DNA from: Octopus vulgaris
Lineage: Eukaryota
DNA length: 64,000 bases
Assembly: GCA_951406725.2 (NCBI GenBank)
Contig: OX597818.1
Span: forward strand, 7,440,001 to 7,504,000
Reading direction: 5' to 3'
Under the pieces are notes generated by a model. That model was not told the DNA's origin and made no database searches. It worked only from the letters and a program-made list of their open reading frames with translations. Numbering within the stretch: the first letter of the stretch is position 1; the number at the start of each line of letters is the position of its first letter. Of the stretch, positions 5,153 to 54,673 are shown one piece after another. A program made the translations under genes and the position numbers.

Positions 5153-6705
5153 TACTGAGAAATTGCAGCAAACATAAAAAGTGTTGTTCTAACGGTTAGA
5201 ACAACACTTTTGGGGTGCTGATTTCAGATACAAAACCAGTTTTCACTCATCGCCTCTAGTTTTTGAGATATATATTATTATGATTTTGTGACAATTCACG
5301 TAACCATATATGATCAGTTCTTATTTTGTTTTCCGAATCTTTGTGATACATATACGTATCTCTACAATGGTTTCAGGCACTTCAAAATACCGAAGATGCA
5401 TCAACAAGGCAAATTCATTCTGCTACGTGTAGGGAGATTTCACGACAGTTGCACAATGTCGAACAATTACTTCCCTCCTGAGAACTGCTTACTTTCATTA
5501 TTTCCACTGTAAAATTGGAGATCAGAACAAATCCTGGGCCCCAGACATCTTTTGTAAATCCTGCTACAGTGGACTAAATTCATGGTTTAACAGCAAGAAA
5601 GCAGCCTTTAACTTTGATGTCCCGATGGTCTGGAAAGAGCAAAGAGGTCATGCAGATGATTGTTATTTTTGTCTAACAAATATATCAGGTTTCAATGCTT
5701 CTTCCAGAAAAAAAAGTTCAAATATCCCAAATTTACCTCAGCTATGTGACCTGTTCCCTACTCAGATGATCTCCCTGTCCCTACAACCCCAGCAAATAAG
5801 GATCTTATTCCTTCATCAGAAGGAGAAATGCCTACAGGGGAAGATTCTGCCAATCGGTATCTTCTGAAGACAATGTCTCTGTTTATTCAGGAACAAGTGG
5901 CGATGAGCCCCACTGGATCATGCAGGAAAACCTGAATGACCTGAATGACCAGAATTGACCTGAATAACCAGGAATACCTGAATGACCTTGTCCATGATTT
6001 GTATCTATTTAAGAAACAGTCAGAGCTCCTGGTATTCCGGCTGAAGCAGTGGAACCTGGTCAAGGTAGATGTAAGGACACGGAACCAGGAGTTTGCTTCA
6101 TTCTTCGACATGGAAAACAAATAGGTTGTGCTACTACACAAATGTCACTGGTTGTTTACCTTTCCCACAGAATCTCTCAGAATGGCGTCTTTTCATAGAA
6201 TCTTCCAAGCTAAGTCTGCAGGCTGTGCTCCTACAGAATGGGAATAAATACCCTAGCATTCCCATTGACTACTCAATCAATCTGAAGGCGCCGTATGACA
6301 ATATGGAGCTCCTTTTGGAAACTGTCAAGTACAACCAGCACTAGTGGAATCTCTGAGGGGACCTGAAGGTCACTGGGCTCCTTATAAGTACTGTTGCTTC
6401 TTCTGTCTCTGGGACAGCCGGACTATGCCCAAGCACTACAAGCAGAAGGACTAGAGATCTAGGAGCACTTTCGTGCCTAGTGAACACAGTGTCCAAGGAA
6501 AGCGTCTGGTGGACATGAACAAGGTGCTTCTTACTCCACTTTATATCAAGCTTGATTTAAGGAAGTATTTCGTGAAGGACATGGACAAAAATGGCGTTGC
6601 CTTCGAACACTTGCGCACTCTATTCCAAGCTCTGAGTCCTGCTAACCTTAAGGAGGGAATCTTCGGACCTCAGATCCGAGTGGTGCTGAAGAATACGGAC
6701 TTTGT
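5153..6705 (+). mobile_element. Chapaev3-like (CMC superfamily) DNA transposon, 3'-truncated
   Basis: Transposase relic from ATG 5367: ...NSFCYV*G...YFHCKIGDQNKSWAP..CKSC...VPMVWKEQRGHADDCYFC, later EWRLFIESSKLSLQAVLLQNGN, CFFCLWDSR and PLYIKL...LKEGIFGPQIR. These match Chapaev3-type transposase motifs as I recall them. Multiple stops and frameshifts. Confidence 0.75.
5367..6705 (+). pseudogene. disrupted Chapaev-type transposase
   Basis: ORFs 5625-5867, 6093-6344 and 6473-6784 are pieces of one frameshifted reading frame with an N-terminal Cys-rich Zn motif. Confidence 0.7.
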
Positions 6706-7904: not shown

Positions 7905-8195
7905 TTATTCTTTTACCTGTTTCAGTCATTTAACTGCGGCCATGTTGGAGCATTACCTGGGGTCGAAAAAAAAGACCCCAGGACTTATTCTTTGTAAGCC
8001 TAGTACTTATTATATCGGTTCTCTTTTGCTGAACCGTTAAATTACGGGCACGTAAGCACACCAACATCGGTTATCAATCGATGATGGAGGACAAACACAG
8101 ACACACAAATATATGTATGCACTCTCTCAATGGGACTGTACCCGAAAACATGTGGTTGGGAAACAAGCTTATTACCACACAGCCACAACTACGCT
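7905..8195 (-). mobile_element. tRNA-derived SINE family A, internally deleted; head not interrupted
   Basis: Tail TTTCAGTCATTTAACTGCGGCCATG and head ...CATGTGGTTGGGAAACAAGCTTATTACCACACAGCCAC match the other family A copies. Confidence 0.85.
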
Positions 8196-11974: not shown

Positions 11975-12328
11975 TTTCTTTTACTTGTTGCAGTTATTTG
12001 CTGCAGCCATGCAGAAGCACCGATTTTAGTCGAACAAATCGACCCCACCAATTATTTTTTGTAACCCAAGTACTTATTCTTTTGGTCTCATTTGCCCAAC
12101 CGCTAGTTACGAAGACATGAACACACCAACATCAGTTGTCAACGATGGAACGGGAACATGACGGGCTTCTTTCAGTTTCTCTCTACCAATTCTACTCAGA
12201 AGTCTGTCGTCGGCCTGAGGCTATACTAAAAGAAACTCGTACAAGATGCCACGCAAGTGAGATTGAACCCGGAATCCCGGAACCATGTGATTGGGATGTC
12301 ATCTTCTTACCACTCAGCTACTCCTGTA
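11975..12328 (-). mobile_element. SINE family A, degenerate
   Basis: Collinear similarity to 12365-12728 and 30576-30976. Confidence 0.8.
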
Positions 12329-12364: not shown

Positions 12365-12728
12365 TTTTTTTACTTGTTTCAGTCATTTGACTGCGGCCAT
12401 GCTGGAGCACTGCCTTTAATCGAACAACTCGACCCCGGGACTTAATCTATCGGTCTCTTTTGCTGAACCGCTAAGTGACGGAGACATAAACACACCAGCA
12501 TGGGTTGTCAATCAATGCTAGGGGGACAAACACAGACACACAAACACACACACATACACATACATATATATATACACATATACGACGGGGTTCTTTCAGT
12601 TTCCTGTCTACCAAATCCACTCACCAGGCTTTGGTCGGCCCGAGGCTATAGTAGAAGACACTTGCCCAAGGTGCCACACAGTGGGACTGAACCCGGAACC
12701 ATGTGGTTGGTAAACAAGCTTACCACAT
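12365..12728 (-). mobile_element. SINE family A, near full length
   Basis: B box (GGTTCAGTCCC on minus), CORE-like GCACCTTGGGCAAGTGTCTTC, internal (CA)/(TA) tract and family tail. Confidence 0.9.
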
Positions 12729-12736
12729 ATATATAT

Positions 12737-12846
12737 AGGCGCAGGAGTGGCTGTATATTAAGTAGCATGCTTACCAACCACATGGTTCTGGCCACCAATG
12801 CCTTGTGGGTGGATTTGTTAGGCGGAAAGTGAAAGAATCCCGTCGA

Positions 12847-26228: not shown

Positions 26229-26290
26229 CTGGGACTGAACTTGGAACCACGTGGTTGGTAAGCAAGATACTTACCACACAGCCACTCAGC
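26229..26290 (-). mobile_element. SINE family A head only (empty target site)
   Basis: GGGACTGAACTTGGAACCACGTGGTTGGTAAGCAAGATACTTACCACACAGCCACTC. Confidence 0.8.
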
Positions 26291-26327: not shown

Positions 26328-26717
26328 TTCCAATACGGAGCAAATAAATCAGGAGAAAAAATGATTCGCGTGAAAATAATTTGTGACGATATCATTGACT
26401 CTATTATTATCTAGTGTAATAATTTAAACATAATAATAACAGACTCAATAATATAGGCACTTGCAAGTCCAAAACAATGCATTAAATAGCTGAAGGATTG
26501 AAATTAATCAAATGTCATACTAAGCATGTTTACCTGCTGGAAATAATAGTCAATTTAAATCGCCAACGTGTTTTTGGACCTGCATTTGCCTATATTATTG
26601 ATTCTTTTATTATCATTTTTAAATTGTTACACTAGATGATAATAGAGTCAATGATAGCTTCGCAAATTATTTTCCCTCAAATTATTTTTTCTCGTGAAAC
26701 ATTTGCTCCGTTTTGAA
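26328..26717. mobile_element. MITE/foldback-like element with ~150 bp imperfect inverted repeats
   Basis: ACGGAGCAAAT...ATCATTGACTCTATTATTATCTAGTGTAA...CAATAATATAGGCA...GTCCAAAA is mirrored by TTTTGGAC...TGCCTATATTATTG...TTACACTAGATGATAATAGAGTCAATGAT...ATTTGCTCCGT. Confidence 0.7.
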
Positions 26718-26977
26718 ATTATTTTCACATTGGTGTTTGCAATACAGTGAAAAAAGAATCAGTCGTATCACAGATCTCAACATGACGGGTTGGGGATCTC
26801 TATCATGGTAACGTGTGCTGAGGATGGTGAAGCTATTTTGCCAGTCCAGAAACAAGTCCATGTGAGTCCAAATACGTGAATGTATGTTGAGTTTGTCTTA
26901 TCTCGTTTGTCTTTGAACGGTCAAATATGAGATTTGACAATTACTTCCAGTAAAAATATACTCATCTCTTTCTCTCT

Positions 26978-28441: not shown

Positions 28442-28741
28442 AAATACCTTTAAAGGTTAAATTTATAAACAACTTATAAATAAGGGCAAACGAAAAAATT
28501 TATAATGCCAAATATGCCGAAACTAGACACATTGTCCATAACCATATAATTTAGAAATTTCTGTCGAGTAGCGTGCTTATTGTGATAAATTATATGGTTA
28601 TGGACAATGTGTCTAGTTTCGGCATATTTGGCATTAGAAATTTTTTCGCTAGCCCTTATTTATAAGTTATATTGGCATTATAAATTTTTTCGTTTGCCCT
28701 TATTTATAAGTTGTTTATAAATTTAACCTTTAAAGGTATTT
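28442..28741. repeat. long palindrome (arms ~110 bp, ~32 bp spacer)
   Basis: 28442-28553 is the reverse complement of 28586-28741, apart from a ~45 bp duplication in the right arm. Confidence 0.92.
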
Positions 28742-28949: not shown

Positions 28950-29752
28950 GAATTGTTAGCGAACTGAACTACAGTGTGACCGGAAGAGAGGAGGTGAGGG
29001 AATCCTAGCGGAAGATGGCAAACTGGGAGGCTCCAGGTATACGTGGGTGTAGAGTGGAGGAAACTGAAAGTGCATGAAGCTAAGTTTAAGGTGTCGAGAG
29101 ATGCAATGGCTGGTAGGATGGCAGGATGAATGGGAATATATATGCTACGATGTTAGAGGAGGTGAATGTTTTTAAGTATCTGGGTTCAAATGTGCCGTTA
29201 GATGTGGGGTTGGCTGAGAAAGTGGGATACAGAGGGAGGGAGGGGAGTAAGATACTCGCAGTTGTGAAAGGTATGCTGAGAGATATAAGGTTGATTATGA
29301 AAGTGAAAAGAGGCGTGTATGAGGGCGTGATTGTACGGACAATGTTATGTAGTGCTGAGACATGGAAGTGCAGATACGTGGCTGAAAGAGGCAGAAAGGC
29401 GCGTCTAAATGTGTTTGAGATGAGATATCTGAGGGCTATAGTTGGGTTGGCATGGCTGGACTGGATGAAGAATGAGGAGGTGCACAGTCTGGCAGGACTG
29501 AGAGAACAACTGGCAACCAAATTGGATAGACGAATGTCGAAGTGACTTGGTAACTTGGATAGGATGGGTGAGGGGCGGATGGTAAGGAGTGTGATGAAGG
29601 TGGAACTGGTAGGCAGTAGAACAAGAGGCATACCTCAGTTTGTGTGGATGGATGAGGTGAAGAAAGCTTTGGTGGTTAGAGTTGTTGGCGTGAGAGAGGC
29701 AAGAGCGTTTATAAATGATAGGAAGGCTTGGAAAGTGTTTGTGGACGGATGA
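28950..29752 (+). mobile_element. RTE-clade LINE, 3' fragment
   Basis: LEEVNVFKYLGS, VYEGVIVRTMLCSAETW, LNVFEMRYLRAIVG...NEEV, and RM...RMVRSVM...GSRTRGIPQFVWMDEVK (ORFs 29126-29545 and 29555-29752) are typical RTE post-RT motifs. Confidence 0.88.
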
Positions 29753-29759
29753 GTCAAAT

Positions 29760-29918
29760 TTGATGTTACTCAAAGGAGTACGGAACGAGCATGAGACGGC
29801 TGAGGTAAACCAGCTTATACTGTCGGGCCCCGTTGCTGATATTGGAGGTTGTATTCTATGCCTTGACCCGAGTATTGAACGACGCTCGTCCATTTGAGTT
29901 GGGAAATGAATGGAATAT
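29760..29918. repeat. ~160 bp direct repeat, copy 2
   Basis: See 28251-28409. Confidence 0.95.
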
Positions 29919-30099
29919 ATCTTGTTGTGGCTATCCCACCTAAAAATGGGGAATATACCTAGGTATATATATATGTACAAATATAGGTTACAAACCTCAT
30001 TCAAGGATAGCAAAATCCTATGAAAGTACTGGGCTTAGATACCTATACAAAGAATATTGAACACTACAGTTAACACTCAACTGCAAGGTAACTATATAA

Positions 30100-30540: not shown

Positions 30541-30575
30541 GACAGGCAGTGTCTTGTAGATTTTACTTACGGCTA

Positions 30576-30976
30576 TACTCTCTTTACTCTTTACTCTTTT
30601 ACTTGTTTAAGTCATTTGAGTGCGGCCATGCTGGAGCACCGCCTTTAGTCGAGCAAATCGACCCCGGGACTTATTCTTTGTAAGCCCAGTACTTATACTA
30701 TCGGTCTCTTTTGCCGAACCGCTAAGTGACGGGGACGTAAACACACCAGCATCGGTTGTCAAGCAATGCTAGGGGGACAAACACAGACACACAAACATAT
30801 ACACACACACTTATATATATATATATATATATATACGACAGGCTTTTTTCAGTTTCCGTCTACCAAATCCACTCACAAGGCATTGGTCGGCCCGGGGCTA
30901 TACGAGAAGACACTTGCCCAAGATGCCACGCAGTGGGACTGAACCCGGAACCATGAGGTTGGTTAGCAAGCTACTT
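30576..30976 (-). mobile_element. SINE family A, 3' part (split by insertion)
   Basis: Well-preserved tail, CORE-like block and B box; stops at GGTTAGCAAGCTACTT and resumes at 33232. Confidence 0.93.
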
Positions 30977-33231
30977 TATTTCAAAACATTTGCCATAAAG
31001 GCAGTACACAGATTAAGTTAGCTTTGCGGGCTGGACGAAGACATTAATGAAGTGAATGATAATGAAAGACAGATGATAAGGATGGGAGAAGACAAAAAGT
31101 GCCCGCCGACTTTCGCTTCTCTAAAACATTGTTCTTTTTAAAGATAAACACAAAACGAGGTATTAAACCTCTTACAATTTTTCCAATTTTTGGACTTAGC
31201 AGTCCATTATTAATAAAAATACAAAACGAGGTATTAAACCTCTTACAATTTTTCAATTTTTGGACTTAGCAGTCCATTATTAATACTAACAGTTCAATAA
31301 TTACATATCGTCCTCGAAATAGCTTGTGCCCGCGCCCTCCACCATCAACCACACCTCCCTCAGAACGTAATCAAGTTCCGAGTTCGCGTCGCCCGGGACC
31401 AAGCTATAATCTTCATTGAGCTCCTTTAGCCCAAGCGTTACGTCGAACGCCACGGCCTCCACAGCTATCTGCGGAGGCCATTCGGGGTCCTGTGTGAAGG
31501 CTAAAGGTGCTCCCTTGTGGTGCTCCTCCATCATTTTTTTTTCAATTTCTCCTCCTCTATAGAAGAGGACCAATACGTTCAGTTCTTTCGTTGGCGGCAC
31601 AGTTCCCGCCAACGGTATTCCTTCTCTTGTCGGTGGCACAACCCCAACCGACGTAGTTCCGGGACATTCCGGTGCTACACTGACAACCGGTAATGTCCCG
31701 TTTTTCTTCCTCTTTTCTTTTTTTTTCCCTTTTCAACTGAGGGAGGGTGCGTCTCCTCCGTGGCTGGAAGATTCGCCTTCCTCTCCTCATCCCTATTATC
31801 CTTTGGTGAGCACCCATTGTTGCTCACCTTCCTCTTTCGGCCTCTGTTTGAGGAGTCCGCTGCTTTCTCGGCCGTTATCGTTCCCTCTTCTAGAGGGGTT
31901 TTACTTAACTGTTCCGGGATCCTATTTTGTTCCCGAGGACAGTTCTTCTTTATGTGGCAGGATTCCAAGCACCGATGACACTTAGGGGGGTGACCCTCAA
32001 GCATCACCGGGTACCTGCACCCGGCCATTTTCAAAAAATCTGGAAGAACCAGATTGGCTGATTGGGTCCACAGGGTCAAAATTGCTTTTGACCCAACCCA
32101 AGCAGCCGCAGGAAGAACTTTTACATTAAGGAGCTTAGTTTCGCTGCCACCCAGACCCCGGCGGATAGTCTCCTCTATCCACTCGGGTTCTATGTCGGGT
32201 GGCAGTCCGCAAATCCAAGCTTTCATCAATTTCTTTTTTTGTACGTGGGCAGGAATAAGATTTCCTTACCCTCCAGGGGTTTGCTAGCAAATTTGCAAGC
32301 CTCTTCAGGGGTGTCAAATAGCAACCACACCGTTGCATATTTGACACCCCTGGAAATGAATTTAATTGTTGGCAAATACTCTTCCAACTCCTTTTCAATT
32401 GCCGTCTTTTCGAATAGGGCGATGGTGTCGAGTGCCTTGGAGTAGGTTCTCAACACCACCGTCCTATCTTCACGGTCTTTTAACCACTTTTTAGGTGGTA
32501 TGATTTCCCATTCCAAGATTTTGTTATTTTTCATTGCCATGTTTTTTTTAAAATATATTCAAATTAAACTCAAAAGGCAAGAAGAAAAAAGTTCAAAAGT
32601 CCAAATAAAATTTGATAGATTTTTGAAAAAACTAAAAGGAGAAAGCACAACAGAAGGGAAGAAATCAACGGAAAGTCGCAATAAAGAAAAAAACAAAAGG
32701 GGGGGTTAAATGAAGTTCAAAAGAAAGTTAATAAACAGAAAAAACACAGCAAAAATATTCTGGCCTTGCGGTACTCCCGGCCTGGGTTGAACCTGGAACG
32801 CCGCAACTGCAACACAACCTCCACAAAAATGGGTCCGAAAGGTAATCCAATAGTGGCTTATTTTTATAATTTTCTTGCGAAGTACTCTGACAAGGGAATA
32901 AATTCAACACACCCAAACACAGCACTGGCTACCGCCAACGGTAATTTTAACAGTAACTGTATTGAATTCCAAGGATACGCCCCTCCACTGTTTTTTCTTT
33001 TTTTTTCAATGAACACAAAAACGGCAGCCGCCGAGAGCAGGCGAAATTGTCTCAGAGTTGGACACAACTTACTGAAATAATAATTGGCACGCAATAAATT
33101 ATGCCCAACTCACAATAAACAAAATCACTTACCTCGACAACTTTCCGTTTTTGGTCTTTTTTCTTTAATTGGACGGAGCTGGTTGACTCGCGTCCACTCT
33201 GGCTGAACAGGAAGCAACTGTCTAACTGCGT
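30977..33231 (-). mobile_element. ORF1-only Tx1/L1-like non-LTR retroelement, copy 1, inserted in a SINE head
   Basis: Perfect 15 bp TSD GTTAGCAAGCTACTT (30962-30976 and 33232-33246), ~690 nt 5' UTR, a single gag-like ORF, ~320 nt 3' UTR and no RT or endonuclease; homologous to 52190-54160. Confidence 0.88.
31301..32540 (-). CDS. ORF1/gag-like nucleic-acid-binding protein (RRM-like + CCHC knuckle), two frameshifts in A-runs
   Basis: ORFs 32226-32540, 31675-32229 and 31301-31639 join into ~413 aa if one base is added to each of the T7 (32234-32240) and T9 (31718-31726) runs. Motifs: TVWLLFDTPEEA, KAWICGLPPDIEPEWI, CHRCLESCHIKKNC. Confidence 0.75.
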
Positions 33232-33270
33232 GTTAGCAAGCTACTTACCACACAGCCACTCCTTCGCCTA
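33232..33270 (-). mobile_element. SINE family A, 5' head (split by insertion)
   Basis: Reverse complement TAGGCGAAGGAGTGGCTGTGTGGTAAGTAGCTTGCTAAC, containing the A box. Confidence 0.93.
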
Positions 33271-34874: not shown

Positions 34875-35188
34875 CATTGTAAAATATTCAACTCAAAAGT
34901 TCAAAAATTCAAATTAAATTCAATAATAAACACAAAAAAACGAATTTTCAGGAGAGATACACCTCCCAAAACAAACTGAGACTTTAAGCACGACCACTAG
35001 CAGATAAATGCATGGAACCAAGTGGAGACCTCTCGTTTGACAAAAAATAAATAATACGAACAACAGACACCCACTAGGTCCCCCCAGAACAGATGTCTTA
35101 CCTAGTAGTCGTGTTTCACTATTTCACGACGCTGACACACACCGACGTGATTTCCACCGCGAAAAAAACGCGTCCGCTCTGTACTGAA
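34875..35188 (-). mobile_element. 5' UTR remnant of the same ORF1-only element family, copy 3
   Basis: Starts TTCAGTACAGAGCGGACGCG (copy 1: TTCAGCCAGAGTGGACGCG) directly after SINE head ...GGTAAGTAGCTTGCTTAC. Collinear with the copy 2 5' UTR; ends ...TTTTTGAACTTTTGAGTTGAATATTTTACAATG like the pre-ATG region of copy 1. Confidence 0.7.
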
Positions 35189-35227
35189 GTAAGCAAGCTA
35201 CTTACCACACAGCCACTCCTACGGCTA
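35189..35227 (-). mobile_element. SINE family A 5' head, broken at the common target site
   Basis: GTAAGCAAGCTACTTACCACACAGCCACTCCTACGGCTA. Confidence 0.88.
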
Positions 35228-39259: not shown

Positions 39260-40664
39260 GGATCTTTTCGTTTTGATGGACGGAATTTCTAGTTAACTAA
39301 ACAATTTGAAACTTCGTAAACTGGTAGAATGTGTCAAAAGAAAACATTATTGTTACTGGCTTTTTTGAGAAAATTGTAATTTGTAAGTTTAACGTAGTTT
39401 AATTCTTCGAATTTTAACCAATGAATTGCCAGCATTTGAGCTGAAATCATTTGCTGCGTTATCGATATTGATAAATAAACGACGAGACGCACGCCGCATA
39501 CACACACACACACACACACATATATTCAGATACATACACACGTACACTTGCACACACACACTCTCTCTCTCTCTCAAACACATGCATATACATTTGCATA
39601 AGCACATAGTAATTAATATATAAGCGTACTCACATACAAACGGAGATATACATACACACACATATGCACACACACACACACACACGTGTTATTCATCCTT
39701 CTCTCTTCTGTCTGTCTCCGCGCTTGCTGCGTTATCGATATTGATAAACAAACAAGGATGCTAGAAATAACAACCATATCTCTTAAATCGATGAATTTCG
39801 GCGCCCAATAAAAATATTAACGATCTTTTTTGAAAATTTTCTTTATTTTTTTTACCGAAAAGGCTTCTCCCATGGTTTTCCAGGGCCACAAGCAACAAAA
39901 ACAAAACAATAATATGCCTAAATCGGTCTAGAGTGGGATATGAGGGTACGCGTGGAGTGTGGGTCATATTGTAAAAAATTGCGAAATAATTGTTCATAAA
40001 AGGATGCCCCAGCTTGTCGGAGGCTGTGATATAAATTGGGAAAAAAATCCTCGACACAGTGCGTAATTGGTACTTAATTTATCGACACCGAAACGATGAA
40101 ACATTGATCCCCCCCACCATTTCTGGTTTATTTACCTTTTGTGTAAATTTGTTCCGGCAAGGGGCAAAACACAGAGGGGACAAAGCATGAGATACAAAAG
40201 TATTAAGTCGATTCTATCGACACCATTGCAAACTCACGAACGTGTATGTATGCTTGTGTGCGTATGTGTGTGTATGTATATCTCCGTTTGTATGTGTGTG
40301 TACGCTTATATATTAATTACTATGTGCTTGTGCAAATGTATATGCATGTGTTTGGGAGAGAGTGTGTGTGTGTGCAAGTGTACGTGTGTATGTATCTGAA
40401 TATGTGTGTGTGTGTGTGTGTGTATGCGGAGTGCGTCTCCTCGTTTGTTTATCAATATCGATAACGCTGCAAATGATTTCAGCTCAAATGCTGGCAATTC
40501 ATTGGTTAAAATTCGAAGAATTAAACTACGTTAAACTTACAAATTACAATTTTCTCAAAAAAGCCAAGTGAAAATAATGTTTTCTTTTGACACATTCTAC
40601 CAGTATACGAAATTTCAAATTGTTTAGTTAACTAGAAATTCCGTCCATCAAAACGAAAAGATCC
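39260..40664. mobile_element. non-autonomous DNA transposon with ~415 bp TIRs and 8 bp TSD (MULE/Foldback- or Merlin-like)
   Basis: GGATCTTTTCGTTTTGATGGACGG... at 39260 is mirrored by ...CCGTCCATCAAAACGAAAAGATCC ending 40664; TSD GGCGATTT at 39252-39259 and 40665-40672. Confidence 0.9.
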
Positions 40665-43599: not shown

Positions 43600-45750
43600 C
43601 ACACATGGTCATACACCATAAAGAAGAACGTAAGTATTGCAGTGAATATATCGAGAAACTGGGATTATCGTAAAAAATGGTTCACCCAACAAACTTATTT
43701 CGGCTGCCCTGATTTGCCAGAACCGTGGCACAAACAGAGCGAAAAAATGTCACATTATCCGCTCCTTTGCACTCATCGGACAACACTTCAGCAAACTGGA
43801 TGCCAATTTTTAGAGTGGTGAATACCAGATCGAAACGCCAGACACAGAAAACAGTGTCAATGTTGAATCCTCATGTAGAAATCCCCAAAAGTAAGGCAAA
43901 ACAAAGCAAACATATCACGAGGATATTCATATTCAAGGAGATAATAAACTTGGAAAGGAAAAGGAAACGAAAATTCTTAAGAAAAGCATCGCCAACGCCA
44001 CCTCCCAATGGAACGGAAAAAGAAAAAGAGCCTGCCGGAAGTCTGATGAAAGAGAGCTCGAAGCTAAAAAGAGAACGACCGAAAGAAATATAAAAAAATA
44101 AAAAGAAAGAAGTTATGTGAAGTAGCTACCGTCTCAAACTCTACGTAAAAGGTGTCTACTGGCTTGGAGAGATGAGGACGAACTGCAAAGCTCAGGAATG
44201 ACGGAACACATGCCAAAACACCACTCTCCATTTAACCAAAAGATAGATTAATATTGTACCCAAATAGACACATATATTAATGCAGACAGACAGTGAAGAA
44301 GACTTCAAAAAGGATGTACGGAAATGCAGTATGAGCTGCAACCGTAGGACAAGAAAATAGCAGAAGAATAGCACAAAAAGATTGCAGCAGCTAGCATTGT
44401 TGAAAGGAAATTAAGCCAGGCACAACCACATACAATACTCCACAAATAATAACCGCGAGTAGTCACTATTGCTACCAAGCCGATAATCACACCAATTCTA
44501 CTGATGGCTGTCACAGGTTTCACACAAACTCAACAGTAACCGCAAGATTGCCTGCCTGATGATCTTTCTTTATGTATTCAAGCAATATGCATTACATTTA
44601 CGGAGACACATCTGTTTTTAAACATAAATGATGCTGTGATACATATACCATTTTTATACTCTAATCTGTAGACAGGAAAAGGAACCCTGGTGGATTTGTG
44701 TTGTATGTCCGTTAAGATGTCATACCACTAACCTTGTTAGCACACCCAAACACAGTCTATGATCCAATGCATTTAAAACAGCTTAACCAAATCATGCCTC
44801 AAATCATATTGTTAAATTCGAAGAAGGCCTTACGATGATAAAAGAAGTACCAATAAATCTAGGTCAATGCCGTAATATACTTCTGATAGTTGACTTCAAC
44901 TTCCCCAATATCAGATGGTCAGGAGGCGACATTACTTCAGATATGATAAGCAAAATGAAACAAGCAGAATCTCTATTTGATCTTACGAAAATGATGTTCA
45001 TGGAGCAAGCCATACTATTTCCAACTAGAAACAATAACATCTTAGACCCCTGCTTCCCCAACAGCGCGGAACTGACCATGCGTAGTCCAAAATTAATTAA
45101 AGATGTATTGTACTCAGAAAGCAACCAAACTGGAAGTCAATTCCAAAACAGACACTCCAGCAAAATCGGCTTAAGAAATTGATAGGAAACTTAAAGAATA
45201 AAAAAAAAATAACTTGCTCACAAAGACAAAATATGGCTTTCGTATAGAGAGAAGCAACTTCACGCAACTACGACAGCATTATAATTGGTACCGAAACAAC
45301 AGCTCAACTACTCAAATATGGACGTGACATATCACGACTTTCCCGAGTCATTTGACGAAGTTGATCATGAGATGACATGTCTCAAATTCTGTGACATCAT
45401 TATTCCTAGAAAATTAAAGCGAGTGATTGCATTGAAAGTCAAACGTTAGACACTTTTAGCCAAAAGTGCTTTCAATGGGAAGCATCAATTCTGAAGCAAG
45501 TCCCTCAGAGAATTGGACTAGGACTAGTATTGTTTCTGGTGGCTCTCTAAGATAGCCCTCACCCAAACTGTTAACCCCTCTCACCAGATATGCTGATGAT
45601 AAAAAAATATCACTGGCAGTCAAGTAGATCCTAAAATTGCAGCATTAGAGTTTTACGAGAAGTAGAGGTGGAAGTCTTCAGAGAACGTCTAGATAAAGTT
45701 TTATCTAAGATACCAGTTGAATCTACATCGCGGCTGGAGACACAAAGCAG
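43600..45750 (+). mobile_element. CR1-group LINE, heavily deleted
   Basis: APE motifs ITFTETHL, DRKR..GG.VLYV, ILLIVDFNFPNIRW, EQAILFPTRNNNILD; RT motifs YGFR, DF..SFDEVDH, VPQ, YADD (45589); C-terminal LDKVLSKIP. The 5' boundary is uncertain. Confidence 0.8.
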
Positions 45751-52151: not shown

Positions 52152-52189
52152 AGGCACATGAGTGGCTGTGGGTATGTAAGTTGCTTACC
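52152..52189 (+). mobile_element. SINE family A 5' head (split by insertion)
   Basis: AGGCACATGAGTGGCTGTGGGTATGTAAGTTGCTTACC. Confidence 0.85.
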
Positions 52190-54160
52190 TTACTACAGTA
52201 GAGTTCGCTTTTTTTCATGGTGCTTGGAAGTCTGTTTTGTTTTTGGGGGCTTAGTGGCGTTTGTTGCTCTGTAATTAATAATTTTTGTTGAGCAGCATTC
52301 TCCACTCTCTTCCAGACATTTGCCTTTCTGTGGTCCTGCGAAAAGATTCACTTTGCAGTGAGAATTGTGTTTTGGGGAAGCGAATTCCCCCCGGAAAATG
52401 TTTTGTTTGTAAAATTGTCTTTTTCTTGTCTGTGTCCGTGCCGAGAATTACCTTTGGATTTACTATTCTGGCAAGGAGTGCGAAGACGGCAAGAATATAA
52501 TTTTTGTGCATATACGGAAAACTGCGAATTGTGGATTACCTGAGTGGCAGAATTTTGTTGCCAGTTGAACTGTCTTCATTCTTTTCTCGTCTGTCTTTCT
52601 GTTCCTTCTTTGTGCTTTATTATTGACTTTTATTTCAACATTTTGGACATTTTGATTTTTGGAACATTTTATTTTTATTTGATTTTTAAAAAATGGCAAC
52701 AAAGAATACCACTTTGGAGTGGCGAATTGTGGCCCCCAAAGAATGTCTCAAAAATTATACTGAGAGAACGGTGGTTTTAAGGACCTAATCTAGGGCGCCT
52801 TGAAACCATCACTGTGTTCTCTCAGCCTGAGATTGAAAAAGAATTGGCAGAGTACCTGCCGAGTTTTAAATTTATCCGTAGGGGAGCAAAGTATGGAACT
52901 GTGTGTGTACTCTTTGACACCGCTACGGAGGCACAAAAATTTACGTGCCAACCGGTGGAAAGAGAGAAGATTTTGTTTCTCAACACATGCGGTGGGTAAA
53001 AATTAACGAGAGCTTGGGTGCGTGGGTTGCCACCCGGAATTGAGCCCGAGTGGATAGAGGAGACTATCCGCCGGGGTCTGGGTGGCAGTAACACCAGGCT
53101 ACTGAATGTAAGGATTATGCCTGCGATTGACTGGGTGAGGTCAAAAGCTGTTTTGATCCTATGGACCCAGTCAGCCGAAGATCTGGTAATACCGGATTTT
53201 TTGACGTTGGCGGGTTCCAGGCACCCGGGGATCCTTGAGTGACGCCCCCCCCAACTGTCACCTGTGCCTGGAAGCAGGCCACATAAAGAGGAACTGCTCC
53301 AGGAACCAAGCTAGGGAACTGGAGCAGTTAATAGAGGATGTTTTTCCTCCATCGGAGCCTCCTGATTATTTAATGGAGGGAGAGGAAAAGAAAGTCGAGG
53401 AGGTGGTAACCCCCTTGAAAGGAAAAAAAAAGAAGGTGGACAACAATGGTTGCCCACCTATGGATTCTGAGGCGGCGGAAGTGAGGGAAGACTCCCGGAC
53501 AAGTTAGAGGAACTCCACGCTCCCGTCGAGAAGAGGAAATAAAGGAAAAAGAAAGAAATTAACGGGACATCACTGGCAGTTGACGATCAACTGCCAGCAT
53601 GCCAGTCCATCCGAGAAAGAGGAAAGATGAGTTTGTCATACTTTTTCTGAAGGGAGTGGCGATAGAAAGCTTCCTAAGGAGGCGAGAAGGCTGGACGGAG
53701 GAGCACTTAGCCTGGACCGAAACCCGAATTCGCCTTCGCAGGTGACTGCGAAGGTCATATCGGATATCAACATGTCCAGGGTGTTGCGCTCCTTTACGAA
53801 GGACTTGTTTAGAGTGGATTTTTGGGACCCCGACCGGGATCCGGAGCAGTACCTATGGGCAGCTCACAGCCTGGTCTGGGACGAAGAAGAATAGGCTTAG
53901 CGCCGAAATATGTAAATATATTTTTATATTTGTAATGATTAATATTGTCGTTATTTTAGACGAATTGTAAGAGGTTCATTGCCCCATGTAATGTATTGTT
54001 AAAGAACAATGTTATAGAGAAGCAGAGGGTCGGCAGGCGCCTTCTGTCTTCTCTCATCCTTATCATCCTTGCATCATTATCATTCATTTCATTAATATCT
54101 TGTCCAGCCCGCAAAGCTAGCTAATCTGAATACAGTCTTCATGAAAAATTTAATGAAATA
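52190..54160 (+). mobile_element. ORF1-only Tx1/L1-like non-LTR retroelement, copy 2, inserted in a SINE head
   Basis: Imperfect 16 bp TSD ATGTAAGTTGCTTACC (52174-52189) / AAGTAGCTTGCTTACC (54161-54176); same architecture and same 3' end (...GAAATA) as copy 1. Confidence 0.87.
52693..53915 (+). pseudogene. disrupted ORF1/gag-like gene (RRM-like + CCHC knuckle)
   Basis: MATKNTTLEWRIVAPK..., EIEKELAEYLPSFKFIRRGAKYGTVCVLFDT, GLPPGIEPEWIEETIRRGLGGS, CHLCLEAGHIKRNC; several stops and frameshifts. Confidence 0.8.
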
Positions 54161-54548
54161 AAGTAGCTTGCTTACCAACTACATGCTTCCAGGTTCATTC
54201 CAACTGCGTGGCACCTTCGGCAACTGTCCTCTACTATAGCCTAGGGCCGGCCAAAGCCTTGTGAGTGGATTTGGTAGAGGGAAACTCAAAGAAGCCCGTC
54301 GTATATATGTATATATATATATCTATGTATGTGTGTATGTGTGTATGTTTGTATCTGTGTTTGTCCTCCTAGCATTGCTTGATAACCGATGCTGCTGCAT
54401 TTATGTCCCCGTCAGCTAGCGGTTCGGCAAAAGAGATCGATAGAATACGTACTGGGCTTACAAGGAATAAGTAACGGGGTCGGTTTGCTCAACTAAAGGC
54501 GGTTCTCCAGCATGGCCACAGTGAAATGACTGAAACAAATAAAAGAGA
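54161..54548 (+). mobile_element. SINE family A, 3' part (split by insertion)
   Basis: Resumes AAGTAGCTTGCTTACCAACTACATG...GGTTCATTCC...GGCACCTTCGGCAA through tail CTCCAGCATGGCCACAGTGAAATGACTGAAACAAATAAAAGAG. Confidence 0.92.
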
Positions 54549-54673
54549 ATATATGACAGGACACAGATAGTGTGTCTATAGCCAGCGGGAGGAGGTGTCT
54601 TCCTGGGGCTACAAACTACAGTAGCATCCACCCTTTTGGGTTAGCCATATTCAAATGGCATATATGCATCACG

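Follow-up and report, generated by a model that had tools for sequence, protein, structure and literature searches.

The locus

The stretch analysed here is 64,000 nucleotides of the Octopus vulgaris genome (assembly GCA_951406725.2, contig OX597818.1, positions 7,440,001 to 7,504,000, forward strand), referred to below as the window. In it, copies of a short interspersed nuclear element (SINE) are interrupted by relatives of long interspersed nuclear elements (LINEs). An earlier note on this DNA had claimed that a retroelement lineage lands in the tRNA head of the SINE. The inserts, named E1, E2 and E3, very probably belong to a target-specific LINE system that homes to one base of the SINE head. 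They and their host SINEs are arranged as follows, ORF being open reading frame and UTR untranslated region.

30575..30961, minus strand: 3' part of host SINE 1, with B-box-like motif, body, TA/TG tract and tail
30962..30976, minus strand: host target 15-mer at the E1 3' junction, with no poly-A between tail and target
30977..33231, minus strand: E1, a full-length 2,255-bp ORF1-only non-autonomous LINE of subfamily A
30991..31003, minus strand: 3' hairpin of E1, with a 4-bp stem and one compensatory pair, common to the autonomous partner described below
31146..31285, minus strand: 70-bp tandem duplication in the E1 3' UTR
31304..32540, minus strand: ORF1-like gene of E1 (tandem RRM-like folds, CCHC knuckle, extra C-terminal domain), frameshifted here
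33232..33246, minus strand: 5' copy of the target 15-mer at E1, the same as the leader of its family and probably element-borne
33247..33268, minus strand: 5' part of host SINE 1, with A-box-like motif, ending in GTGTGGT
34900..35188, minus strand: E3, 5'-end remnant of a third ORF1-only family
35189..35225, minus strand: 5' part of host SINE 3 and target 15-mer
52153..52189, plus strand: 5' part of host SINE 2 and degenerate leader
52190..54160, plus strand: E2, an older ORF1-only relative of E1 with a broken ORF
54161..54549, plus strand: target and 3' part of host SINE 2

The element at 30977-33231 splits a SINE as the note had described, leaving 22 bp of it on the 5' side and a body of 390 bp, and is bounded by identical 15-mers (30962-30976 and 33232-33246) that have no other exact copy within the window. 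Its ORF1-like gene is frameshifted, but open and about 414 aa long in other copies. The diverged relative, E2, is 70% identical to E1 over 715 bp of the ORF and 80% over the last 219 bp. Its 3' end adjoins the target at 54161, at the same SINE base as E1; its 5' 15-mer is degenerate, hence there is no perfect target-site duplication (TSD). The third remnant that the note had reported, E3, begins at 35188 directly after the target, and ~250-290 bp (to about 34900) can be aligned to relatives, which have the same ORF downstream. The closest protein relative of the element ORF was an Octopus sinensis gene model with 60% identity, with no other close one, and a Pfam search of the broken window ORFs gave no match.

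The A-box-like and B-box-like motifs of the SINE were identified by eye. The host SINE head had no tRNA match in Rfam, and ARAGORN was negative at scores 100, 90 and 80, with a poor fold only at 70. The SINE head is hit as claimed, but its identity as a tRNA head is unsupported by Rfam and ARAGORN, and its tRNA origin is putative. Octopus OR1 has been classed as a CORE-SINE (PMC4824008).

Target site use across the genome

Genome-wide work used the 2.8-Gb assembly containing the window. The last 171 nt of E1, including only 2 nt of the target, found 2,042 candidates, of which 40 were scored and the best 30 fetched. All 30 loci (query included; 29/29 others) ran into the SINE at the same base of GGT/AAGTAG, the slash marking the insertion point, which is the junction count that the note had proposed. 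These junctions had no poly-A and were spread over many chromosomes. The E3 5' end (46 candidates, 14 loci fetched) was preceded by the target in 14/14 loci, 13 after the SINE head and one after the tail of another element, and the same ORF lay downstream in 11 of 13 other loci. The tail of the autonomous partner (552 candidates, best 30 fetched) met the target in 30/30 loci (29/29 others), 27 running into the SINE and three into another unit. Insertions were in the sense direction of the SINE without exception in the sampled copies.

Positions with four or fewer mismatches to the target 15-mer number 29 in 128,000 in the window (2.3e-4 per base), so the presence of 29/29 E1 relatives at the target goes beyond chance. 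As a control we took the top 30 zf-RVT matches, all from other octopus LINE families; the tail adjoined the target in 1/27, and 3/30 had no recognisable tail. The claim that the lineage targets a fixed SINE position thus holds for the young families, with 29/29 and 29/29 other copies at the site.

The SINE is also as abundant a landing site as the note supposed. Exact patterns occurred at 469 filled and 57,456 empty SINE sites, about 0.8%, in a count that takes each array once and misses diverged sites. The occupation of 3 of 8 heads, correct for the window, is a local excess over the ~1% occupied genome-wide. The five empty heads are all present, but three have a diverged or deleted target.

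8132..8188, minus strand: empty SINE head, target diverged
12160..12326, minus strand: empty SINE head, target diverged
12368..12727, minus strand: empty SINE, head 5'-shortened, with a small deletion within the target
12738..12790, plus strand: empty SINE head
26230..26287, minus strand: empty SINE head

Profiles of filled and empty sites (82 and 17) were too small a set for mapping recognition. Two 5'-truncated copies outside the SINE had true TSDs of 14 and 12 bp, with GGT just before each.

Independence of the insertions

Inserts and hosts have different histories. Autonomous copies lying directly in the SINE (n=27, three tandem rows being left out of 30) were 0.8% apart over their last 1.5 kb and their host heads 11.4% (Mantel rho 0.20, p 0.11). 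For the E1-tail copies (n=30) the values were 2.2% and 8.3% (rho -0.06, p 0.71). The host SINEs are of two diagnostic subtypes. Outside the SINE no flanking sequence was shared, apart from two repeat-to-repeat matches and a pair of units in one array. Uncorrelated divergence, two host subtypes and unshared flanks together reject composite movement of SINE and insert, and segmental duplication. The insert does bear a 15-nt piece of the SINE at its 5' end, and some array units are local duplicates, but divergence among hosts is 4-14 times that among inserts, some copies are 5'-truncated or lie off the SINE with TSDs of their own, and several unrelated families use the same site. We regard a single composite element, or spread by duplication, as hardly credible. 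The patterns that the note had set against its own claim were thus absent: the young copies did not have unrelated flanks, they did not share flanks beyond the SINE apart from the array pair and two repeat matches, and insert divergence did not follow that of the host. Contigs of four sequencing runs cover all 30 bins; they are silent on empty alleles, because empty SINE copies elsewhere yield identical joints.

An autonomous partner

The autonomous partner that the note had sought, with ORF1, an APE-type endonuclease and reverse transcriptase (RT), was found at the same target. It lies within an array alongside ORF1-only elements, which we call passengers, as a 5.45-kb unit (about 5.4 kb). 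It has two ORFs. ORF1 has a CCHC zinc knuckle (PF00098), and in ORF2 the APE-type endonuclease (PF03372, aa 10-226) is N-terminal to the RT (PF00078, aa 509-754), with a C-terminal zinc-binding motif (zf-RVT, PF13966). The best PDB match of ORF2 was human L1 ORF2p (E 4e-67), and L1 endonuclease was also a top match. About 75 endonuclease matches had 97-100% identity, and open frames of 1,133-1,150 aa were present at several of them. The partner is thus a young LINE, with copies about 0.8% apart, some with an open ORF2. Aligning the endonuclease with eight relatives revealed no telling loop, and neither a cluster look-up nor a protein atlas gave the partner a Tx1 name. A tblastn search with its ORF2 found no match in the window at E 1e-3, where the elements are ~2 kb long.

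Other zf-RVT LINEs of this genome (L151-L180; 25,804 candidates) include many young L1/Tx1-type families with open ORF2s of 1,130-1,140 aa. Common downstream flanks in L160, L165, L167 and L179, and likewise in L174 and L180, hint at further families targeting other repeats, or at longer 3' ends. L162 lies antisense in the same SINE head, close to the B-box-like motif.

The ORF1-only passengers

The window elements are at the site, as the note held for its targeting lineage, but they are passengers and do not encode the targeting enzyme. Passengers encode a single protein of 395-416 aa and no RT. This protein is only 29% identical to the partner ORF1 (over 191 aa, E 1e-22), which rules out a fresh deletion of the present partner. 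It is predicted to have tandem RRM-like folds, a knuckle, a disordered linker and a C-terminal domain of about 85 aa that is absent from the partner ORF1. In the full model of one ORF (L113) this domain is folded at aa 331-412, with a pLDDT of about 80-90; the C-terminal 95 aa folded alone gave no confident model (pLDDT 46). Among the matches listed, dS between passenger lineages reached 1.2-2.0 and dN/dS over aa 1-206 was 0.11-0.34; the passengers are old ORF1-only lineages under selection. HAL1 derives from L1-clade elements and is poly-A ended. Passengers are not HAL1 proper, as there was no poly-A at any displayed 3' junction and Pfam recognised a weak CCHC only, with no L1 ORF1 family.

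A separate 1.5-kb ORF1-only family (L135/L136, in the C10 array at about 101,177,600-101,179,100) has a 408-aa ORF of a different lineage, with the same target and tail hairpin as the other passengers, and is probably a second origin of passengers. Subfamilies A and B (L002-L030 compared with E1) are 97% identical over the last ~650 bp and only ~70% upstream. C-terminal ORF modules are swapped among other passenger families too, and this mosaic pattern suggests recombination between passengers.

All passenger families and the partner have a tail hairpin with a 4-bp stem about 14 nt from the end. Pairing held in 48/48 cells across 12 tail variants, and the one C-G/U-A switch was in E2-type tails. 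The likeness between passenger and partner tails is loose and covers about 30 nt, the hairpin and an AAATA end.

The leader 15-mer

Identical 15-mers were present at both ends of 16/44 full-length copies with both ends available, in a set from which four duplicate loci were dropped and tandem or headless loci skipped, and for which 15 of 20 autonomous 5' windows were used. Where the 5' 15-mer was informative (hand tally, n=28), it was the family version in 25, the host version in two and a hybrid in one. Subfamily B had a one-base-shorter leader in 14/15 copies irrespective of host. As the 5' 15-mer follows the family, the leader would travel in the RNA. A true TSD as the general rule for full-length copies is ruled out by the 25/28 leaders that follow the family. 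The perfect 15-bp TSD of the earlier note is thus real at E1 as a pair of identical 15-mers, but such pairs are usually not a duplication of the host site. Earwig R2 has a 22-bp copy of downstream 28S sequence at all 5' junctions (PMC3774820), and the TSD of Dada is often replaced by an element-carried version (PMC8869645). In L047 and L221, two to three tandem repeats of a 5' SINE head piece lie directly before the element, like the upstream duplications of R2.

Mixed arrays

Searching with the passenger ORF as protein yielded 12,053 candidates, among them matches 2 kb apart that exposed arrays. These lie within single SINE heads, with one 15-mer between successive units. One has seven 2-kb units and one 5.45-kb unit over 19.4 kb, another nine units over 17 kb. 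HeT-A forms head-to-tail arrays, a parallel to those of octopus. Several units had their nearest neighbours on other chromosomes. The most diverged family-C unit is near the 3' end of one array, a position that fits weakly with stacking on the 5' side and gives a faint hint of the growth order.

Relationships to other LINEs

A midpoint-rooted FastTree of 179 RT regions placed the octopus RT clade and its unnamed relatives as sister, with local support of 0.94, to a clade holding six metagenome loci with U2 small nuclear RNA (snRNA) pieces at the element ends (L236, L239, L242, L243, L245 and L247). The U2 pieces were scored in 20 scanned loci of 80 metagenome loci; a further metagenome contig, L269, has a U1-like piece on the 3' side. 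Such U2 pieces at element ends are the pattern of Keno (PMC4640811), with which the transposon-targeting Tx1-Mar has been placed (PMC4494074). The U2 site at those junctions and the SINE site match in 17/22 columns with three gaps, in a short alignment without statistics. The Tx1-clade assignment proposed in the note is likely but depends on this tree, which had no named Tx1 or L1 references; the two-ORF APE-RT anatomy and the target preference are those of the clade. Descent from Keno is a lead.

A search of the octopus genome with one exact pattern of a Keno-type U2 3' junction gave 0 matches, and all sampled young copies are in the SINE or in its arrays; on this evidence we reject present-day targeting of U2. 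ARAGORN, at a relaxed score of 95, printed no tRNA genes beside insertions in 235 loci, and one tRNA was found across 60 of the 80 metagenome loci.

A model for targeting and stacking

We propose that a young L1/Tx1-type LINE inserts by target-primed reverse transcription at GTGGT/AAGTAG in the SINE head. By analogy with L1/Tx1 biology, ORF2p would nick the bottom strand at 5'-CTACTT^AC-3', and priming on the RNA 3' end would follow; since the junction is invariant, this may involve pairing of a few target bases. ORF2p may recognise its RNAs through the short 3' hairpin, and the top strand would be nicked about 12-16 nt downstream. Passengers retain an ORF1 of their own and would use the partner's ORF2p by way of the common tail, as the site, tail and arrays suggest. 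Full-length RNAs would begin with their own copy of the target 15-mer, and the cDNA end with this leader may anneal to the top-strand overhang, making the 5' "TSD" usually the element's version. GGT/AAGTAG stays intact on the 5' side of each insertion, which would allow further elements to stack into arrays.

Several observations weigh against this model or limit its reach. The fetched copy sets were best matches, which biases them towards young copies and understates insert divergence. The older E2 family is less strict: its tail (1,393 candidates, best 30 fetched) met the target 15-mer in 13/30 loci including the query (12/29 others), 10 of them with the SINE body and three with other sequence, one of these a tandem unit. 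The hairpin covariation is a single event among relatives, and the structure was derived from the same sequences. As the tail likeness is short, another, undetected partner may serve some families. The two host-version 5' junctions and the hybrid do not follow the family leader. In two arrays a one-base-longer 15-mer recurred at 7/7 and 6/9 leaders, before different families, which points to local copying there and not to element-borne leaders. Units differed by a mean of 15 substitutions within arrays and 24 between them, and one array had near-identical units in ABAB order; the arrays do not appear to be purely serial insertions, and some units look like local duplicates.

Alternative explanations

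The E2 family bears on whether the site is recognised as such. Its 17 off-SINE sites, two of which have a common flank and two of which belong to another family with the same tail, retain the bases of A-A-G-T-A-G at 16, 12, 13, 13, 14 and 10 of 17. The enzyme might then have only a short preference, for about GGT/AAGTAG, the SINE being hit for its sheer number of perfect sites, which run to tens of thousands (57,456 exact empty ones or more). We give this some credence, though less than an even chance. It is partly compatible with homing to the SINE and would suit E2, a family that is only preferential for the SINE site, unlike the young families. A 9-mer should be common off SINEs, yet the young families had 0/60 loci there, so longer recognition or RNA-DNA pairing would be needed for them. 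It is improbable that the elements rely on the host SINE for transcription, by read-through from the head or upstream followed by trimming, as R2 does on rDNA. The constant sense orientation, the element-borne leader and the repeated SINE-head pieces upstream of L047 and L221, similar to R2 (PMC3774820), would fit. However, the sequence upstream of the 15-mer differs among copies as host DNA does, insertion puts 2-19 kb between the A-box-like and B-box-like motifs, and the 5' UTRs of 500-700 bp could contain a promoter of their own.

A further possibility is that the elements aim, or once aimed, at a cellular small-RNA gene (that of U2, the Keno target, or a tRNA gene) and reached the SINE by spill-over or a later switch. 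The sister position of the U2-flanked clade, the resemblance of the U2 and SINE sites and the grouping of Tx1-Mar with Keno (PMC4494074) speak for it. Set against these are the absence of the exact U2 junction pattern and of ARAGORN tRNAs beside the insertions, the shortness and gaps of the site alignment, and sister octopus families of the same clade that do not use this site. On balance we consider it unlikely, and a small-RNA gene as the present target is unsupported. Going beyond homing to the SINE, we can suggest only tentatively that a Keno-related lineage switched from U2 to a look-alike site in the most abundant SINE of the genome, that its specificity sharpened (from 12/29 to 58/58), that several independent leader-carrying ORF1-only passenger lineages stacked and split the SINE promoter boxes, and that this is undescribed in print or Repbase. 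If true, the parasite system would have three tiers and would preserve in nature how an APE endonuclease changes its target.

Other features of the window

Positions 39260-39687 and 40240-40664 form an inverted pair of ~430 bp, 94% identical. The stretches at 26328-26718 and 28442-28741 are palindromic, one with 70-bp perfect inverted ends, and look MITE-like. The segment 28252-28412 recurs at 29760-29920 with 97.5% identity. Plus-strand open frames at 29117-29545, 44787-45182 and 5433-5867 resemble pieces of other mobile elements, putatively the C-terminal part of an RT, an APE endonuclease and a transposase.

Known systems and significance

Published Tx1 targets include RNA genes, microsatellites, DNA transposons and LTR (long terminal repeat) elements. 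Among those in transposons are Tx1 in Tx1D of Xenopus, Tx1-Mar in Mariner-N4_AMi, Tx1-8_Crp/Tx1-4_AMi in LTR elements and Tx1-9_AMi in Harbinger (PMC4494074). The "parasite of a parasite" of the earlier note is therefore right about the SINE host, but not unprecedented. As in those systems, an APE-RT LINE uses a fixed site within an interspersed repeat, with non-autonomous passengers at the same target (SINEU there) and tandem insertions with one target copy between them (PMC4494074). The octopus system differs in that the target is a SINE head, hit at a single base, in one orientation and by every young copy sampled (100%), the passengers encode a protein and are ORF1-only, and the system is recent, with open ORF2s. 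Keno resembles it in having a precise 3' junction and a similar target, and the nearest target-identified relatives in the tree are U2-flanked (PMC4640811, PMC4494074). Identity to Keno is about 26-31%, however, there is no A-rich tail and no U2 junction in this genome by the one exact pattern, and the octopus target is a selfish repeat with >57,000 exact copies and not a low-copy gene.

Like HAL1, HeT-A and Ag-Sponge (PMC5786205), the passengers have one ORF1-type gene, no RT and a partner-like 3' end; unlike them, they are Tx1-type derived and site-specific, with no poly-A and the extra C-terminal domain of ~85 aa. Earwig R2 likewise has an apparent TSD carried in the RNA with fixed substitutions, and a cDNA-target heteroduplex model for its uniform 5' junctions (PMC3774820), but differs from the octopus LINE as known here in its restriction-like endonuclease, rDNA co-transcription and ribozyme. 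Dada also inserts beside the A box of a Pol III-type head and has an element-carried TSD version (PMC8869645), but uses a DNA transposase, makes a 6-7-bp TSD and targets real tRNA genes. A 2026 paper on O. vulgaris repeats counts L1-Tx1 families, with no target analysis found in the part available (PMC13282606), and the available parts of PMC13282606, PMC8967140 and PMC4758252 yielded no Tx1 target in molluscs. We found no SINE-targeting LINE in the literature, though Repbase, Dfam and some subscription papers may already hold these families. Transposon-targeting Tx1 elements, passengers, tandem insertions and ORF1-only LINEs are known already; the newer part is the SINE as landing pad. No principle is overturned, and there is a precedent for each ingredient.

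Target-specific LINEs have been explained as seeking harmless multicopy sites. With >57,000 exact empty sites, the SINE is a safe haven at the extreme, and only about 1% of it is used. Annotators should note that 2-kb tandem arrays and apparent TSDs in octopus genomes are stacked retrotransposons. The families, old and new, differ in stringency and provide a test bed for the evolution of APE endonuclease specificity. The system could also help to tell if the U2 site is linked to the SINE site, and in what way second-strand joining is guided by a target copy at the 5' end.

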